From positions 11,479 through 75,478 of the forward strand of contig JALUTT010000003.1 of the NCBI GenBank assembly GCA_027021705.1: DNA of 64,000 nt, given 5' to 3'. Made by a program: the position numbers and the translations under genes. This document shows positions 28,013-35,375 of the stretch, piece after piece (within the stretch, counting starts at the first letter, position 1; each line of letters opens with the position of its first letter). Source of the DNA: Anaerolineae bacterium. GTDB taxonomy: Bacteria > Chloroflexota > Anaerolineae > S140-20. The notes below the pieces were generated by a model. It made no database searches. It had not been told where the DNA came from and saw nothing but the letters and a program-made list of their open reading frames with translations.

Positions 28013-29716
28013 ATCTCCCATCGGCGTCCTGGGCTCCGATCTCCTGCTCGCCATATCCGGCATCTGCGCCGTTATCAAGAGATCGCCGGTGTCTTCCTCC
28101 GTCACGGGTTGGGCGAGGCGCTGGACCAGTTGGGCCTGACGCCGCTGCTGAGCCTCCCCCGTCGGATCGCTCGCCGGCCGCCTCCCCCTTCCTCCGCGCT
28201 GACCACCCCCCAGCGGCTCCGGCTGGCCCTAGAGGCCCTGGGGCCCACCTTCGTCAAGCTGGGCCAGATCCTCAGCACCCGTCCCGACCTGCTCCCACCC
28301 GACTACATCGCCGAGCTGAGCCGGCTCCAGGATACCGTCCCGCCGGTCCCCTGGGAGGCGATCCAGAGCTGCCTGGAAGAAGAGCTGGGCGCCCCCTTGA
28401 GCGCCCACTTCGCCTCCTTCGATCCCCAGCCCATTGCCGCAGCCTCTCTCGCCCAGGTTCATCCGGCCATCCTGCTTGACGGCACCGAGGTGGTCGTCAA
28501 GGTGCAGCGCCCCCATATCCTCCAAATCATCGAGACTGACCTGGAGATCCTCAGCGACCTGGCCTGGTTGGCTCAGCAGCACACCCCCCTGAGCGATCTT
28601 TACGACCTGCCGGAGATCACCGAGGAGTTCGCCTACACGCTGCGGGCTGAACTGGACTACCGGCGGGAAGGGCGTAATGCCGACCGCTTCCGGGAGAACT
28701 TCGCCGACGAGCCGGCCCTCTACATCCCCCAGGTCTACTGGGAGACGACGACCCGCCGGGTGTTGACGCTGGAACGCATCCGGGGGATCAAGATAGACGA
28801 CGTGGAGGCCCTCGATGCGGCCGGCTACGACCGCAAGCGGATCGCCCTCCACGCTGCCCGCATCATCATCCAAGAGGTCCTCGTGGACGGCTTCTTCCAC
28901 GCCGACCCCCATCCCGGCAACTTCGTCGTCATGCCCGGCGAGGTGATCGGCGCGATGGACTTCGGGATGGTGGGCTACCTGGACCGCCGGCTTCGCGAGG
29001 ACCTGGTCCGCCTCTACATCGCTGCCGTGCAGGTGGACAGCGAGGCCGTCGCCGATCAGCTCATCCGCATGGGAGCTGCCCGACAGGGGGTGGATCGCAA
29101 CGGCCTGAGCCGGGACATCGCCCGGCTCTTGCGCAAGTATCAGGGGCTGCCGCTCAAAGAGATCCGAGCCCAGGAGGTCATTCGGGATGTGATGCCCATC
29201 GCCTTCCGCCATCACTTGCGGCTGCCCAGTGACCTCTGGCTGTTGGGGAAGACCTTGGGGATGATGGAGGGGGTGGGGTTGAAGCTCGACCCCGACTTCG
29301 ACATCTTCGCCGTCTCGGAGCCCTACGTCCGCCGCCTGATGCGGCAGGTTTGGTTGCCCGACCACTGGGGGCCTTCCCTGCTCCGGGGGATCACCGACTG
29401 GGCGGAGCTGACCAGCGTGGCCCCGCGCCAGGCGGTGCGCTTGCTGGAGCAGGCGGAACGGGGGGAGTTGCAGATCCGGCTGCGCCTGCAGGAACTGGAA
29501 GAGACGACGGCGCGGATGGACCGCATGGCCAGCCGGCTGGCCCTCAGCATCCTCGTCGCCGCCTTCATCGTCGCCCTGGCCCTGCTCATCCCCACCCTCA
29601 ACCTGAACGCTCAATGGGGGATCATCACCTGGTTGGTGATCCTGGGCTTCATCGTCGCCAGCTTCCTGGGTCTCTGGCTCCTGATCACCATCTGGAGGGC
29701 CGGTCGCTGGCGGTGA
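28013..29716 (+). CDS. ABC1/UbiB (AarF) family atypical kinase; probable ATC start
   Basis: LGPTFVKLGQ, AAASLAQVH, VVVKVQRP, ELDY..EG, FFHADPHPGN, DFGM; conserved RHLRRYQEI..LRHG lies upstream of TTG 28109; SD GAGGAGGT precedes in-frame ATC 28013. Confidence 0.88.
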   Translation: MSHRRPGLRSPARHIRHLRRYQEIAGVFLRHGLGEALDQLGLTPLLSLPRRIARRPPPPSSALTTPQRLRLALEALGPTFVKLGQILSTRPDLLPPDYIAELSRLQDTVPPVPWEAIQSCLEEELGAPLSAHFASFDPQPIAAASLAQVHPAILLDGTEVVVKVQRPHILQIIETDLEILSDLAWLAQQHTPLSDLYDLPEITEEFAYTLRAELDYRREGRNADRFRENFADEPALYIPQVYWETTTRRVLTLERIRGIKIDDVEALDAAGYDRKRIALHAARIIIQEVLVDGFFHADPHPGNFVVMPGEVIGAMDFGMVGYLDRRLREDLVRLYIAAVQVDSEAVADQLIRMGAARQGVDRNGLSRDIARLLRKYQGLPLKEIRAQEVIRDVMPIAFRHHLRLPSDLWLLGKTLGMMEGVGLKLDPDFDIFAVSEPYVRRLMRQVWLPDHWGPSLLRGITDWAELTSVAPRQAVRLLEQAERGELQIRLRLQELEETTARMDRMASRLALSILVAAFIVALALLIPTLNLNAQWGIITWLVILGFIVASFLGLWLLITIWRAGRWR

Positions 29717-29740
29717 GCCGGCGTGAGGGCCATCTCGGGT

Positions 29741-30157
29741 TCATCCCGGGGGCGTCTCCACCTCCGACGGCAGTGGCCAGCCCCGGGCCTGGAGCCGCCG
29801 CTCCACCTCGGCCAGGAGCTCGGGCTCCGACTCCCAGCCGACGAACTTCTGACCATCTATGAGAAAGGTGGGGTAGCGACGGATCCAGTGACGGATCAGC
29901 CGCCAGATTCCCACCAGGGATTCGGGGTCTACGATGCGGATCAGCACCGCTCCCCGATAGCGCTCCGCCACCTCCCGGGCCCAGGTGCAGACCCGCAGGT
30001 ACTCCTCGCGGAGCCACTCAGGATATTCGTTGATCTCCTCGTTATGGACTTTGTCCCCGATACCAAGGCCCGCTTGGTTTGACATCCACTCGCAGTGGGG
30101 TCAATGGAGCTGATAGCTCAGCACGGGGGCAATGACCTCAACAATCAGCCGCCGCAT
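29741..30157 (-). CDS. Candidate selenoprotein, thioredoxin-like UxxC protein (138 aa, Sec at codon 19)
   Basis: SD GGAGG and ATG 30157; MRRLIVEVIAPVLSYQLH-TGA-PHCEWMSNQ.. reads in frame into ORF 29741..30085; TGA aligns with Cys19 of the adjacent paralog; downstream hairpin. Confidence 0.82.
30055..30100 (-). promoter_or_regulatory. Putative bacterial SECIS element
   Basis: ACCAAG-CGGGC-CUUGGU hairpin (30078-30062), loop 28 nt after UGA with G at loop position 2; extendable by GAU/AUC and CCCC/GGGG pairs. Confidence 0.6.
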
Positions 30158-30549
30158 CCTGCTTCCTCCATGCCTTGGGCCGACAGCTTCTCCTCGATCG
30201 CCGCTCGCAGGGCCGGCTCCGATTCCCACCCGACGAACTTCTGACCGTCCAACAGGAAGGTCGGGTAACGGCGGATCCAATAGCGCAGCAAGCGCCACAT
30301 CCCCTCCAGCGACTGGGGGTCCACGATGCAGACCCGCACTGCGCCCTGGTAGCGCCGGGCGATCTCCCGAACCCAATCGGAGACCTGGAGGTAGGCCTCC
30401 TGCAGCCACGCCGGATAGGCGTTGATCGCTTCCTGCTGCACGGCGGCGTTGACCCCCAGCCCGGTCTTGTCGAAGACGAACTCGCACTGGGAACAGTGGG
30501 ACTGGAAAGTCAGGACCGGTGTGACCACCTCGACGACGATCCCTCGCAT
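30145..30549 (-). CDS. Thioredoxin-like CxxC protein (Cys paralog of the candidate selenoprotein)
   Basis: ATG 30549 after GGAGGAG; HCSQC motif and RYPTF cis-Pro-like motif; colinear with the downstream paralog. Confidence 0.85.
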   Translation of the reverse strand: MRGIVVEVVTPVLTFQSHCSQCEFVFDKTGLGVNAAVQQEAINAYPAWLQEAYLQVSDWVREIARRYQGAVRVCIVDPQSLEGMWRLLRYWIRRYPTFLLDGQKFVGWESEPALRAAIEEKLSAQGMEEAGCGG

Positions 30550-30648
30550 TGACCTCTCCTCCCTCGGCATTCGAGCAACACAGGTGGGAGAGCCCATCCG
30601 TAGAGCCCTCCCACCTGCAGTGTTGACGTCAGCAGACCGAGGCGTTTC

Positions 30649-32406
30649 TCAGCGGGCTGCCATCGCCATCTCGGTGCGGGCCCTCTGGAAAGAGCGGAGC
30701 CCGTCGTAGGCCAGCAGTAGGGCCGCCAGGGCGAGGAAGAGCCCGATGAGGCCGGCCACCAGGTTGCCGAAGACGAAGGCCGCCTCGATGCCCGGCTCGA
30801 AGGCCGCGTTGAAGGACTTGTAGGCCGTGATCAGCAGGGCGGTCACCGTGGTGACGTACATGAAGACCGCCGGCCAGAAGGTCCAGTTGTAGGCTTTCCC
30901 CTCTCGGGCCAGCCAGATGGTGATGAGCAGCAGGGCCAGGCCGGCGAAGAGCTGGTTGGCCCCACCGAAGAGCACCCAGATCCTCTGCCAGAAGCCGGTC
31001 CACAGGATCAGCAGGGTGAAGAGGATGGCGACGATGGAGCCGACGTGGGGGTTCTTGAAGGCGACGATCTTGTCGCCGATCAGCTCGGCGCTGGCCACCC
31101 GCATGAAGCGCAGGACCAACTGCATCACCGTGAGCGCCATCACGGCCAGGAAGATGGAGCCGATGGCTGTCCCTAGATCGGCGGGGACACCGAGCACGCC
31201 CAGGAAGCGGGACATCCCGTCGGCAAAGACCCCACCGGCCTTTGCGGTCAGCTTCCAGTTCTGGGTTGGGTCATAGAAGGTGCCGGCCGTCGCCGTAACC
31301 GCGAAGACGACGGAGAGGACCCCCAACACCGCCTCGGTGTACATCGCGCCGGCCCCGACGGGCAAGGCGTCGGTCTCCTTCTCAAGCTGGCGGGCCGTGC
31401 CCGAGGTGGAGACCAGGCTGTGCCAGCCGGAGATGGCCCCGCAGGAGATGGTGACGAAGAGGATAGGCCATAGCCAGCCCAGGTGGGGTTGGTTCCAAGT
31501 GACGAAGGCCGGGATGGCGAAGTTGGTCTTGGCCGTGCCCACCCCCAGGGTCGCCAGGAAGATGCCCACGATGGAGCCCACGATGCCCAGGAGGACGAAC
31601 CAGAAGGAGGTGTAGTTGATGGGCTGGGCGAAGCGCCAGATGGGGAGCACCGACCCCAGGTAGCAGAAGGCCAGGGCCACGATCCCCCACAGCCAGACGG
31701 ACCACTTCATCGGTCCGTAGGGGGTCTTGTAGAGCACGCCTTCGGCGTCACCGGCCAGCCCGTTGATGCCTTGGGCGATGTTGGTGAAGAAGCCGGTCGT
31801 GCCCAGCCAGATGCCGATGAGGGCCAGGGCCACGGTGAGGACGGTGGTGAAGAGCAGGTCCTGCTTCCAGCGGTAGGTCATCTGCCCGGCCAGGAGCCCT
31901 GCCAAGGTCAGGAAGAGGAAGCCGAAAGGAACCACCGGATTGGCCAGCAGGCCGGCCACGACGTAACCGAAGGCACCCATGATGAGGAGCAGGTAGAAGT
32001 AGAGGAAGCTCAGGAGGATGCCCCGCGCTCGAGGGGAAATAAGCTTGTAGCTCAGACCGCCTAGGGTCATGCCCTCGTTCCGCATCGCCAGCATGGCCGA
32101 GGCGTAGTCCTGCACCCAGCCGATGAAGAAGACGCCGATCACCAGCCACAGCACGGCCGGCAGCCATCCCCACTGCACGGCGACGATGGGACCGACGATG
32201 GGGCCCAGCGCGGCGATGGACTTGAACTGATAGCCGAAGAGCACGCTTCCACTAGCCGGCATGAAGTCCACGCCATCCTGGTAGAGGGTCGCCGGCGTCG
32301 CCCGTTTGGGATCCGACTGGATAACCTCCCGGTCCATCTTGCTCGCGTAGAAGCGATAGCCCAGGATGACGATCACCAACGTGATGACCAGGACTAGCAG
32401 TGCCAT
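30649..32406 (-). CDS. cstA: Carbon starvation protein A family transporter
   Basis: TPA..DGVDF, FKSIAALGPIVGP, GWLPA, PILFVTISCGAISGWHSL, IWVLFGGANQL. Confidence 0.93.
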   Translation of the reverse strand: MALLVLVITLVIVILGYRFYASKMDREVIQSDPKRATPATLYQDGVDFMPASGSVLFGYQFKSIAALGPIVGPIVAVQWGWLPAVLWLVIGVFFIGWVQDYASAMLAMRNEGMTLGGLSYKLISPRARGILLSFLYFYLLLIMGAFGYVVAGLLANPVVPFGFLFLTLAGLLAGQMTYRWKQDLLFTTVLTVALALIGIWLGTTGFFTNIAQGINGLAGDAEGVLYKTPYGPMKWSVWLWGIVALAFCYLGSVLPIWRFAQPINYTSFWFVLLGIVGSIVGIFLATLGVGTAKTNFAIPAFVTWNQPHLGWLWPILFVTISCGAISGWHSLVSTSGTARQLEKETDALPVGAGAMYTEAVLGVLSVVFAVTATAGTFYDPTQNWKLTAKAGGVFADGMSRFLGVLGVPADLGTAIGSIFLAVMALTVMQLVLRFMRVASAELIGDKIVAFKNPHVGSIVAILFTLLILWTGFWQRIWVLFGGANQLFAGLALLLITIWLAREGKAYNWTFWPAVFMYVTTVTALLITAYKSFNAAFEPGIEAAFVFGNLVAGLIGLFLALAALLLAYDGLRSFQRARTEMAMAAR

Positions 32407-32686
32407 AGCTTTTCCCTCCTTAACTTGGTACTAGGGCCAACCGATTGATTGGCCTCAGGAAAGCGACCCCACCTGAATCGTCCATCGGATCCACAGTTTG
32501 GGTTGCGTCTATCACCCCCCTTCTTGCGTCGAGGACAAGGATGCCTGAGCACCCAAACAGGACTGCTCTACGGAGAGTCCTCTTGGGGAGAAACAGCCTT
32601 TGGACGAATCGCTCTTGCCTGGTCTCAAGCGCTGCGAAGCCAACCGTGGGGAGTAGACAACGGAGGGAAACCAATATAGCAACCAG

Positions 32687-32716
32687 ATTATACCCAAAAG
32701 GGCACCCGTTTGTCAA
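32687..32716 (-). promoter_or_regulatory. Consensus sigma70 promoter for cstA
   Basis: TTGACA(32716-32711)-18bp-TATAAT(32692-32687), implying an approx. 270-nt leader. Confidence 0.72.
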
Positions 32717-32728
32717 GACCCATCCGGT

Positions 32729-32882
32729 CGGTGATTACCCACAAGTGAGCGAGAGCGTGGTCCGTAGCAGGCCGTCCACGAATTTCTCACAAATGCACGA
32801 ATGAGGTGGTCCTTAATTCGTGTATTCGTGCCCCATTCGTGGACGGCTAGCTCCCTATCTCCAAAGATATGGGTAATCACCG
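32729..32882. mobile_element. MITE-like nested palindromic element
   Basis: Terminal IR CGGTGATTACCCA/TGGGTAATCACCG; internal IR GCCGTCCACGAAT/ATTCGTGGACGGC; one arm recurs at 54493-54557. Confidence 0.7.
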
Positions 32883-32978
32883 GCTACCTGGACTTTATAA
32901 CACCGATGCCCTCGGAAGGTTGCTCCGTTTGGTCGGGTAGTCGGATGGTCAGGGGGTCAGCCGTTGGCAGTCAACGGT

Positions 32979-34076
32979 CTATGGTCCGACGGCCTGGTTC
33001 AGGATCGAAGCGGCGGTGGCGATGTTGGTCAGCTTCGCCTTGGCCGCCGACCGGGAGAGCTGCACCATCCCGCAGTCGGGAGCCAGGATCAGCTGCTCCC
33101 TGGGCAGGTACTGCAACGCCTCCCGCCCCCGCTCCACCAGAGCCTCCACGCTCTCCACCTCGTCCGAGCCCACGTCCACGACGCCCAACATCACCGTCTT
33201 CTCTCCAATGGCCGGCAGCACCGACAGGTCCAGCCGGCTCTGGGCTCCTTCGATGGAGACCACGTCGAGGGCAGAATCGCTGAGCCAGCTCAGGACATCG
33301 GCGTAGTACTCAGCTTTGGCTTTGTACTCGATGCCCTGCCTTTCCAGCGGCTTGTCGGGATAGCCCCGGCAGATGTGGACGAAGAAGGTCGCCCGATCCT
33401 CCAGCCCGTGGAAGCAAGCCTGCAGGGCATCCAGGCCCCACCGTTGGGCCTGGTCGGGGTATCGGAGCAGCACCGGATCGTCGAACTGAATCGCCCGGCA
33501 GCCCGCTTCGATGAGGTTCTCCACTTCGTGCCGGATCGCTGCCGCGTAGTCCATCGCCAGCCGCTCCCGGTCCCCCTGGTAGTAGTCGTCCACCACGCTG
33601 TCCACCACGGTGGACGGCCCCGGCAGGCCGATCTTGGCGATGCCCTTGGCGTACCGCTGGGTGAACCGGTAATCCTCGACCAGGATCGGTCCCTCATACG
33701 CGATCTTCCCGACGACGACGGGGAGGCGGCGGACGTACATCCCCTCTCGGATGGACTTCTCCCGCAGGTGCTCGAAGTCGAAGCCACCCAGCCGGCGCAG
33801 CACGTAGAGGACGTAGTGGCCCCGCCGCTCCTCCCCATCGGTGATGAAGTCCAGACCGGCCTCGTTCTGATCCTCGATGGCCATCCGGGCCGCCCTGTCC
33901 AGCCGCGCCCGGAACTCTTCGGGACCGACCGCCTTCTCCAGATCGTAGAGGGTCATCCCCATCTGGTCCAGGAGCTCGCGTCCCGTGCCGGCGAAGAGGT
34001 AGTCGGGCTTGGGGTAGCTCCCCACGATGGCCGTCATCACCCGATCCTGGCGGACCTTTCCTCCTGTTGAATCCAT
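32979..34076 (-). CDS. Cobalamin-independent methionine synthase II family protein (single-barrel MetE-like)
   Basis: VGSYPKP, ITDGEERR, IQFDDP, HICRG (HxC), LAPDCG Zn ligands. Confidence 0.88.
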   Translation of the reverse strand: MDSTGGKVRQDRVMTAIVGSYPKPDYLFAGTGRELLDQMGMTLYDLEKAVGPEEFRARLDRAARMAIEDQNEAGLDFITDGEERRGHYVLYVLRRLGGFDFEHLREKSIREGMYVRRLPVVVGKIAYEGPILVEDYRFTQRYAKGIAKIGLPGPSTVVDSVVDDYYQGDRERLAMDYAAAIRHEVENLIEAGCRAIQFDDPVLLRYPDQAQRWGLDALQACFHGLEDRATFFVHICRGYPDKPLERQGIEYKAKAEYYADVLSWLSDSALDVVSIEGAQSRLDLSVLPAIGEKTVMLGVVDVGSDEVESVEALVERGREALQYLPREQLILAPDCGMVQLSRSAAKAKLTNIATAASILNQAVGP

Positions 34077-34092
34077 CCCTTTCCTCACTATA

Positions 34093-34185
34093 GTCGCTTG
34101 GTCGCTTGGTCGAGTGGTCGGGTGGTCCTCGGTCCTTAGTCCGCAGTCGGCGGTCGGCCGTCGTCCACCGGCGGTCGGCCGTCGG
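34093..34185. repeat. Composite 8-mer/7-mer tandem array (inverted relative to 9962-10050)
   Basis: Reverse complement reads GGACTAAGGACCGAGGACCACCCGACCACTCGACCAAGCGACCAAGCGAC. Confidence 0.8.
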
Positions 34186-34298
34186 AACCAGAACGACGCC
34201 CTATCCCCGAGGAGCAGGACTCCCGTCCGCCCTCACCCCGGGTCCGGGCGTCGGACACTGGGATGGTCTACGGCTGGACAAAAGCCCCCTTTGGGAGC

Positions 34299-35375
34299 TC
34301 AGTCCGTCCAGAGCAGCGACTTTTCCGTCTGGGGGTCGAAGAACTGGACCTTGTGGGTGTTGAAGCGGAGCCGGACAGTGTCCCCGATCTTCAGCCGCAG
34401 CGCCGGATCGGCCAAGAAGTGGACCTTGCTCTCGCCGATGCGCACGTCCACCAGGTCGTCGCGGCCCAAGGGCTCCACGACGTAGACCTCGCCGGCGATG
34501 CCCTCCTCGGCCAGGGAGACGTCCTCAGGCCGGATGCCCAGGATCACCTTGCCCCGGCCGGCGGCCTTCTCCCCCCGTTCCGGCGGGACGATGACGTCGA
34601 AGCCCTCACAGCGAGCGTGGTACTCGCCGTTCTCCCGGACGACCTCGACCTCCAGGAAGTTCATCGGCGGGTTGCCGACGAAGCTGGCAACGAAGAGGGT
34701 GCGCGGCTGGTCGTACAGCTCGTCGGGCGGGCAGTAAGCCTGGAGCTTCCCGTCCCGCATCACGGCGATCCGGTCCGCCATCGTCATCGCCTCCACCTGG
34801 TCGTGGGTCACGTAGATGGACGTGATGCCCAGGTCCATCTGGAGGCGCTTGATCTCGCTGCGCATCGTCAGGCGCAAACGGGCGTCTAGGTTGGAGAGGG
34901 GCTCGTCGAAGAGGAGCAACTGAGGTTCTTTGATCAACGCCCGTCCCAAAGCGACCCGCTGCTGCTGCCCGCCGGAGAGCTGGGCCGGTTTGCGGTCCAT
35001 CAGATGGCCGATGCCCATCATATCCGCCACTCGCTGGGCCCGCTTTCGCCTTTCCTCCATCGGCACCTTCTTCAGCTTCAACGGGAAGGTCAGGTTCTCG
35101 AAGACCGTCATATGGGGGTAGAGGGCGTAGCTCTGGAAGACCATGCCGATGTTGCGGTCTTTGGGGGCCAGATGATTGACCACCTTCCCATCGAACTTGA
35201 TGAGCCCGGCGGTGGGTTTGTAGATGCCCGCGATCATCAAAAGCGTCGTCGTCTTTCCGCAGCCCGAGGGGCCCAAGAAGGCCACGAACTCCGCATCCCC
35301 GATCTCCAGGTTGATGTTGTCGGCACCGACGACCGGTCCCCACCGCTTGGTGAGATTTTCCAGTTGAACCCGCAT
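34299..35375 (-). CDS. Sugar ABC transporter ATP-binding protein (MalK-like)
   Basis: [32 protein letters not shown]. Confidence 0.95.

Follow-up and report, generated by a model that had tools for sequence, protein, structure and literature searches.

A UGA-containing thioredoxin-like gene beside its cysteine twin, downstream of cstA: a probable new selenoprotein family in Anaerolineae

Two small tandem genes, here called A and B, lie behind the transporter gene cstA on the minus strand of the window, by which we mean the whole 64,000-nucleotide stretch of contig JALUTT010000003.1 (positions 11,479 to 75,478) from the genome of an Anaerolineae bacterium. Gene A encodes a CxxC motif, and gene B, its paralogue, has an in-frame TGA at the position of the first cysteine. 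The explanation that we favor for the locus as a whole, with a probability of about 0.8, is that gene B encodes a selenoprotein, that A and B belong to a family of redox-active thioredoxin-fold proteins, and that this family supplies an accessory to the CstA transporter. On the evidence of the sequences compared here, gene B is very likely a genuine selenoprotein, with selenocysteine (Sec) inserted at codon 19; oxidoreductase chemistry is the probable function of the family, at a lower level of confidence, and we put a physical and functional partnership with CstA a little above even odds. The genes are read in the order cstA, gene A, gene B, and the features on which the argument rests are as follows.

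30649-32406, minus strand: cstA, 585 amino acids, carbon starvation / pyruvate-peptide transporter family (Pfam PF02554, E 4.3e-110)
30148-30549 (stop 30145-30147), minus strand: gene A, the Cys paralogue with a predicted thioredoxin fold, 134 amino acids, ATG at 30549, active site H-C-S-Q-C-E
29744-30157 (stop 29741-29743), minus strand: gene B, the putative selenoprotein paralogue, 138 codons with the TGA read as Sec, active site H-U-P-H-C-E
30164-30169, minus strand: Shine-Dalgarno sequence GGAGGA of gene B, within the end of gene A, with a 6-nt spacer to the ATG at 30157-30155
30101-30103, minus strand: in-frame TGA at codon 19 of gene B, the proposed Sec codon, opposite the first Cys of the gene A CSQC
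30062-30078, minus strand: apical hairpin of a candidate bacterial selenocysteine insertion sequence (SECIS), 6-bp stem ACCAAG/CUUGGU and 5-nt loop CGGGC, 25-41 nt after the U of the UGA

A preliminary description of the locus, made from its letters without database searches, had presented A and B as tandem paralogues that align without gaps, the second having its own Shine-Dalgarno sequence and an ATG at 30157, and the arrangement is as it described. With the TGA read through, BLASTP aligns the two products without a gap at 75 of 126 identical positions (60%, E 3e-60). The similarity extends to both sides of the TGA, which, again as proposed, is the sole internal stop of gene B (30103-30101) and falls in the column of Cys19. 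Gene A is preceded at its ATG by the Shine-Dalgarno sequence GGGAGGAGAGG, and its start at 30549 matches the N-termini of homologues in a 43-sequence alignment. The beginning of gene B overlaps the last codons of gene A by 13 nt and its Shine-Dalgarno sequence lies inside the end of gene A, an arrangement that would allow translational coupling. The mechanical list of open reading frames (ORFs) contains gene B only as a 114-amino-acid ORF (29741..30085) that begins at Met25, the truncation that the preliminary description had also pointed out, and public protein collections keep it in the same 114-residue form (P0005). A search of protein collections for homologues returned three proteins only. 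Outside this assembly there is an orthologue of gene A (P0004, 97% identical) and a truncated orthologue of gene B (P0006), which is 73% identical over the part present and has the same Met25 start. In contigs of three other samples one base is missing at 30172, which shifts the last codons of gene A, and P0004 has a different C-terminus because of this missing base.

The TGA recurs at the same column in genes of other genomes. The scans covered 401 phylum genomes, 61 relatives and 401 class genomes. A single-protein query detected the family in 33 of the 401 genomes from the phylum, and a profile (E <= 1e-8) detected it in 98 of the 401 from the class, about a quarter of those sampled. The class scan flagged 13 rows with a TGA, six of which are terminal stops, while the other seven, gene B included, have the TGA at the column of the first Cys. 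These seven genes belong to six genomes and four GTDB families of the class, and 66 distinct homologues have Cys at this column; in the 43-sequence alignment both C19 and C22 are nearly invariant. A TGA aligned with the first Cys of a CxxC motif had been read from the start as a signature of Sec, and the alternation of seven TGA genes with 66 Cys forms at one column upholds that reading. The other TGA-bearing loci are L064, L079, L065, L114, L116 and L117, and the active sites of the six other genes, with the TGA written as U, are:

G408 C71 (L064): H-U-I-H-C-E
G408 C340: H-U-M-H-C-E
G420, G527 C187 and G457: Q-U-P-H-C-E
G595: Q-U-P-S-C-E

The six are 38-49% identical to gene B, and all seven Sec genes have an 18-codon N-terminal part that encodes the first strand, together with an open frame to the normal C-terminus. 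Closer to the window, the TGA at 30101-30103 is unchanged in contigs from three other hydrothermal-vent runs belonging to two other studies; one of these vent strains differs at 20 of 139 neighboring bases (about 14%) yet keeps the TGA. When genome and metagenome contigs were searched for related loci, nothing was retrieved beyond distant Cys relatives and the contig of the window itself.

This distribution bears directly on the possibility that translation does end at the TGA, gene B being a decaying pseudogene that arose by a lone TGC- or TGT-to-TGA change, or by a sequencing error, with gene A alone functional. Loss of gene B would be tolerable with a functional Cys copy alongside, and gene callers do take the TGA as a stop. 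Yet the codon stands in six other genes of five genomes with intact frames on both sides, it is retained in the diverged strains of the three other samples and is succeeded by a conserved hairpin (see below), and gene B itself is free of frameshifts and further stops; in addition, the truncated orthologue P0006 starts at the same Met25. The pseudogene explanation is largely refuted because the TGA is conserved, and we consider it highly improbable. The preliminary description had itself named a lone nonsense change, a sequencing error and decay in homologues as ways in which its proposal might fail: the TGA in five other genomes speaks strongly against the first, the three other vent samples rule out the second, and the Sec-form homologues contain no frameshifts or other signs of decay.

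A regulatory alternative would have the TGA end an 18-residue leader peptide, with the true product being the 114 residues from Met25, so that the arrangement would represent a leader peptide or attenuation and not recoding. An ATG does stand six codons past the TGA in the window, and several database representatives start at Met25. This start is not conserved, however, as the corresponding codon of G408 C340, G420, G527, G457 and G595 encodes Ile, Val (GTT) or Leu. Moreover, a product of 114 residues would be without strand 1 and without the entire CxxC site of a thioredoxin fold, whereas the 18 codons before the TGA encode the conserved strand 1 of the family at a fixed length, with the motif [ILVM]-x-[ILVM]-[ED]-V-I. 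We regard this alternative as very unlikely, although a shade less so than the pseudogene.

The source genome (G000) encodes the apparatus for Sec insertion, to which the preliminary description had pointed as a check on its proposal: selB (303.7 bits), selA (566.1 bits), selD (375.9 bits) and a tRNA-Sec (72.5 bits) all score above their cut-offs, and ARAGORN calls the tRNA as SeC with the anticodon tca. The selD gene (C41:5488-6420, L010) has an in-frame TGA of its own, and the selenophosphate synthetase is therefore itself a selenoprotein. In all five other genomes with Sec forms, selA is present. This apparatus also bears on whether the UGA might be read through as a standard amino acid, by near-cognate suppression with Trp or Cys, in place of Sec. 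Nothing specific favors that idea, which is a formal possibility for any UGA read-through; it is opposed by the full Sec machinery, by the ordinary use of TGA as a stop in cstA, in gene A and at the end of gene B, by the position of the codon at the nucleophilic Cys of CxxC, where Sec/Cys exchange is an established pattern, and by a hairpin specific to the TGA forms. We think it the least probable of all the alternatives considered here.

This hairpin, the candidate SECIS element, occupies one common register across the seven Sec genes, with the onset of the stem 24-25 nt after the U of the UGA. It has a 6-bp stem and the loop CGGGC in gene B and the two G408 genes, and an 8-bp stem with the loop GGG in the other four. 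In the seven-sequence alignment 89% of hairpin cells are paired; among the eight pairs, two have substitutions in both partners (AU to GC and UA to AU) and one has become a GU wobble. None of 500 shuffles reaches the covariation score, and the pairing is lost when the partners are slid by 1-3 columns. To compare Sec with Cys genes we counted pairs at this specific register in place of using whole-region folding energy, which does not separate the two groups in these GC-rich genomes. The six core pairs are complete in 7/7 Sec genes versus 1/66 Cys genes, one more Cys gene having five of the six. Codons of the conserved peptide Q-A-G-L-G / L-G-G-L-G overlap with the hairpin, and in Cys genes whose peptide is Q-A-G-M-G or Q-A-G-V-G the codons used do not pair. 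The sole strain variant inside the hairpin, at 30068, falls in its loop. A SECIS-type element, which the preliminary description had left to be sought, thus has a covarying candidate at a suitable distance from every UGA.

In the tree, A and B are sisters (support 100/98) and the six other Sec forms make up one clade (90/77). The hairpin of gene B is nearly letter-identical to those of G408, which suggests that gene B and the G408 genes share a Sec-containing ancestor and that gene A is a Sec-to-Cys convert that arose after duplication. The Cys form in which all six core pairs are present (L121/L126, G512:C6:14620-14964) has genes for Rrf2, ferritin and cysteine desulfurase nearby; it is close to the Sec clade in the tree and may likewise be a recent convert from Sec to Cys.

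Some other family genes have peculiarities of their own. G527 has a Cys form (C433:2750-3115) and a Sec form (C187:1170-1541) on separate contigs, which, at 8% contamination, may not derive from one organism. The G408 C71 Sec gene is immediately followed, at L064:1913-2128, by a third paralogue, which is more diverged and runs off the contig; its first strand and Y-P-x-D-F region are preserved, but it has no CxxC/UxxC. L122 (G764:C83) has an in-frame TAG at a conserved Trp (E-G-W-stop-K-S-L) and is probably a pseudogene or an assembly error.

At the protein level, a profile search of 1.84 billion representatives yielded 453 clusters at E <= 1e-3 and 278 at E <= 1e-10, and in the ESM Atlas the family is found in 'hypothetical protein' clusters only. 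Of 22 short representatives, about ten start with a Met a few residues past the CxxC site, as P0005 does. Such truncated proteins (for example P0006, P0069, P0080, P0097 and P0120, of which P0006, P0097 and P0120 are the nearest orthologues of the gene B type) could be further unrecognized Sec forms, a lead at the protein level only. The family profile also matches P0019, a protein of 2105 residues, in 41 separate stretches (profile positions ~36-82); P0019 may be either a low-complexity artefact or a protein composed of repeats of the helical insert.

The predicted fold is thioredoxin-like. An AlphaFold2 model built on the 43-sequence alignment (mean predicted local distance difference test score, pLDDT, 86.8) has a core in the order beta-alpha-beta-alpha-beta-beta-alpha, with two extra helices between helix 1 and strand 2; its elements are E4-9, H20-28, E71-76, H81-90, E97-100, E103-106 and H108-124. 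The CxxC/UxxC pair (C19/C22) stands at the start of helix 1, and P96, invariant in the alignment, precedes strand 3, a position that we take to be the one where thioredoxins carry the cis-proline that is classic of redox-active thioredoxin folds. In a VIA-align comparison with 48,161 chains, the top 50 matches are all thioredoxin folds, with Z from 10.4 to 8.0; the best has Z 10.4 and a root-mean-square deviation of 2.3 over 83 aligned residues. Foldseek against the PDB likewise returned thioredoxins only, with weak E-values (best 7.2e-3), and the family profile matched the thioredoxins 4knd (E 6.5e-4) and 1fo5 (E 9.6e-4, C-terminal half) among PDB sequences. The model and these comparisons agree with the preliminary description, which had placed the pair in a small thioredoxin-fold family. 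Members are ~125-140 residues long and share the consensus [FY]-H-C-x-H-C-E, apart from a subfamily with G-L-C-x-x-C that lacks both His. There is no N-terminal extension able to be a signal peptide, and the protein is presumably cytoplasmic.

The preliminary description had also doubted that this was a described selenoprotein family, and none of the Pfam or NCBIfam models, including those for the listed selenoproteins, gives a significant match. At E up to 1, gene B matches no Pfam or NCBIfam family and gene A only MJ0307, at chance level (11.9 bits versus a cut-off of 92.75). Of the models for thioredoxin-fold UxxC selenoproteins, NF047660 matches none of the 43 members at E up to 1, and the DUF466 and KCU-star models (PF04328, NF033934) match neither A, B nor the 43 members. 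Below threshold, the 43 members are matched by TIGR00411 (MJ0307-type thioredoxin; 20/43, best E 1.7e-6), TIGR03757 / DUF1525 (16-17/43), MTH895/ArsE (TIGR00412; 14/43), Thioredoxin_3 (PF13192; 12/43, best E 2e-4) and, in a single member, the SaoT model (E 0.092).

These comparisons place the family beside several known systems and within none of them. Like the A/B family, the thioredoxin-fold UxxC selenoproteins of bacteria have a small thioredoxin fold, Sec in place of the first (attacking) Cys of CxxC, common Cys homologues and a bacterial-type SECIS in the coding region past the UGA; the A/B family differs from them in its two extra helices, its H-C/U-x-H-C-E consensus, its linkage to cstA and the lack of a significant match to any of their models. 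MJ0307 (TIGR00411, 1fo5) and MTH895/ArsE (TIGR00412) are the nearest sequence relatives detected and have the same minimal thioredoxin fold, but the A/B proteins are ~45 residues longer, with another active-site motif and another gene context. C-x-H-C is the active-site pattern of DsbA (CPHC) and of protein disulfide isomerase (CGHC), and U-P-H-C in gene B is the DsbA tetrad with Sec in the first place; unlike those proteins, the A/B family has no signal peptide, no DsbA helical insertion domain and no sequence match to either.

Beyond what the preliminary description had noticed, Sec forms occur elsewhere in the class and the family is tied to cstA. A cstA homologue is directly adjacent on the same strand in 55 of 71 distinct family genes (the cstA homologue lying downstream in 37 and upstream in 18), and of the 16 without an adjacent cstA about half have less than 450 nt of flank, too short to judge. 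Of 12 upstream neighbors scanned, one resembles the ATPase Get3/ArsA, and with so low a count we do not link the family to such an ATPase. The single cstA of the source genome is the only CstA found there. In E. coli, according to one study, pyruvate uptake needs both CstA and YbdD, a DUF466 protein encoded right after cstA (PMC5847655). Two further sources report that a DUF466 selenoprotein ending in K-C-U adjoins CstA homologues in Campylobacter and Helicobacter (bioRxiv 10.1101/2022.07.06.499078), that this member is catalogued as the KCU-star family (PMC13188914), and that YbdD and YjiX end in Cys-Cys (bioRxiv 10.1101/2022.07.06.499078; PMC13188914). A DUF466 gene was not found in the source genome, and the A/B pair fills its place downstream of cstA. 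YbdD/YjiX (DUF466, PF04328 'Sel_put') and KCU-star (NF033934) resemble the A/B family in being small, in lying directly beside a CstA-family gene, in having a redox-capable residue pair and in alternating between Cys and Sec. However, DUF466 proteins have ~65 residues with CC/CU at the extreme C-terminus, whereas the A/B family has a thioredoxin fold with CxxC/UxxC near the N-terminus. Sequence and fold are unrelated, and the likeness is a functional analogy at most, not membership. The A/B family is a second family of small Cys/Sec proteins encoded next to CstA transporters, unrelated to the first, and by that analogy would be their convergent companion.

A predicted complex of the window's CstA with gene A points in the same direction. 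The pair scored 0.64 against 0.00 for the best of three controls, at a mark that 51 of 78 solved complexes and 2 of 108 mismatched pairs attain. At least 94% of contacts are common to the runs, with a pLDDT of 72 or more for the partner. The predicted interface takes in eight of the 11 invariant or nearly invariant residues of the family (E7, C19, C22, P46, D77, S80, G83 and R93) and, on CstA, the conserved residues Y178, D183, P255-W257, Q261, N264, Y265, W328 and E342 (invariant set ~178-185, 255-265). The part that docks, residues 10-40, is the lowest-confidence stretch of the monomer model. No solved complex of this kind is known to us from which the model could have been drawing.

A number of observations weigh against the explanation that we favor, and they touch each of its parts. 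The source genome is a metagenome-assembled genome, 94.9% complete with 4.5% contamination. Part of the conservation of the hairpin is coding constraint on the G-L-G peptide; the G512 Cys form has the full hairpin and another Cys form five of its six pairs; the whole 71-nt region folds no better than shuffles (z -0.47); and the covariation statistics are drawn from seven related sequences, which are few. The spacing and the loop G of the hairpin fit rules that we presume to be those of the bSECISearch model. In the tree, the window pair stands apart from the clade of six Sec forms, with weak support, so that at least two gains or losses of Sec are needed. As to CstA, the complex was modeled with gene A, not gene B, and used no alignments. 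Neighboring genes drawn blind pass the same test in 7 of 44 cases, and therefore a pass counts in favor of binding without demonstrating it. Finally, five of the six other Sec genes have no adjacent cstA in the available DNA, where the flank is sufficient only for G420, G457 and G595; those of G527 C187 (~400 nt on each side) and G408 C340 (~1.5 kb upstream, ending with the contig) are too short to judge. Neighbors of the Sec gene in G457 (L124, C126) include an Rrf2/IscR-type regulator and a NifU_N-zinc-ribbon-DsrE fusion; in G595 (L123, C75) they include genes for a ferredoxin, a flavodiiron protein and a heavy-metal P-type ATPase. In the available DNA this second Sec clade (G420, G457, G527 and G595), together with its neighbors in the tree, is without an adjacent cstA, and in two of its genomes the Sec gene is close to metal and Fe-S genes; the CstA partnership is therefore not the whole story for the family.

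The same neighborhoods lend themselves to another account of the chemistry, in which H-C/U-x-H-C-E is a metal or Fe-S site, the protein is a metallochaperone or a carrier of Fe-S or chalcogen, and Sec has been inserted as a ligand. Two His and a Glu flank both Cys/Sec residues in most members, but the G-L-C-x-x-C subfamily lacks both His, and CxHC occurs as well in the disulfide-exchanging DsbA (CPHC) and protein disulfide isomerase (CGHC). The invariant P96 at the classic cis-Pro position also speaks for redox activity over metal binding. Genomic context cuts both ways: for the second Sec clade and the Cys forms closest to it, the neighboring genes are those for Rrf2/IscR, NifU_N-DsrE, cysteine desulfurase, ferritin, heavy-metal P-type ATPase and ferredoxin, whereas most members of the family adjoin cstA, not metal genes. 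For several catalogued selenoproteins adjacent to transporters, it has been suggested that Sec serves as a ligand for metal (PMC13188914; bioRxiv 10.1101/2022.07.06.499078). We judge a metal site to be unlikely, though considerably less so than a stop, a leader peptide or a standard amino acid at the TGA.

The remaining features of the locus lie around the three genes.

28109-29716, plus strand: convergent ABC1-kinase gene that closes the locus
32687-32716, minus strand: promoter-like site with a perfect match to the sigma-70 consensus, TTGACA, 18 nt, TATAAT (12/12 matches), one site found versus 0.5 expected in shuffles
30580-30618, minus strand: hairpin with a 16-bp perfect stem, not followed by a T-run, in the spacer of 99 nt that separates cstA from gene A

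The promoter-like site falls in a 575-nt intergenic region that is otherwise without explanation. Lying ~280 nt upstream of cstA, it is, by consensus match only, a candidate promoter of a cstA-A-B operon. The 111-nt region around the spacer hairpin has a minimum free energy of -52.1 kcal/mol (z -3.2; 1 of 200 shuffles as low). The hairpin is a possible element of RNA stability or processing, or a weak attenuator, and could determine how much transporter is expressed relative to the small proteins. An Rfam search over 29000-34500 returned nothing relevant.

Returning to the selenoprotein explanation, the UGA at codon 19 would be decoded as Sec by the genome's own SelA, SelB, SelD and tRNA-Sec, and decoding would be directed by the small hairpin 25-41 nt past the UGA. 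The product would be a 138-residue cytoplasmic thioredoxin-fold protein with U-P-H-C at the start of helix 1, in which Sec would serve as the attacking nucleophile, and gene A, from the same cstA-A-B transcript, would supply its Cys twin (C-S-Q-C). A protein of the A/B family would dock on CstA as a small redox-active accessory subunit with a YbdD-like role, and its dithiol or selenol-thiol site would either gate CstA or act on the imported cargo.

Of the elements of this proposal, SECIS recoding, the thioredoxin fold and the UxxC site are known already; what is new is the uncatalogued family. BSepDB counts 111 known selenoprotein families (PMC13326102), and Table 1 of the 2026 selenoprotein catalogue, a few rows possibly excepted, has no such family (PMC13188914). 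The profile libraries behind most of the catalogued families likewise contain no matching model. A full-text literature search found no report of a CstA-linked thioredoxin-like selenoprotein or CstA partner of this kind.

The finding would add a family to the bacterial selenoproteome and correct a systematic error in databases, which hold its Sec members as N-terminally truncated hypothetical proteins. Sec and Cys twins encoded in one operon offer a natural comparison of the benefit of selenium at a CxHC site, and the predicted docking on the most conserved residues of CstA gives a concrete hypothesis for the role of the transporter's small partner. A wider and distinctly speculative reading, which we hold to be doubtful, is that CstA-type transporters as a rule depend on a small cytoplasmic subunit bearing a reactive dithiol or selenol-thiol pair, and that this need has been filled at least twice by unrelated proteins: by DUF466 (CC/CU) in Proteobacteria and Campylobacterota, and by the thioredoxin-fold CxHC/UxHC family in Chloroflexota. 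If that were true, the repeated recruitment of Sec would mean that transport by CstA is redox-gated, or that its cargo needs thiol or selenol chemistry on arrival, and the long-unexplained requirement for YbdD would gain a mechanism.

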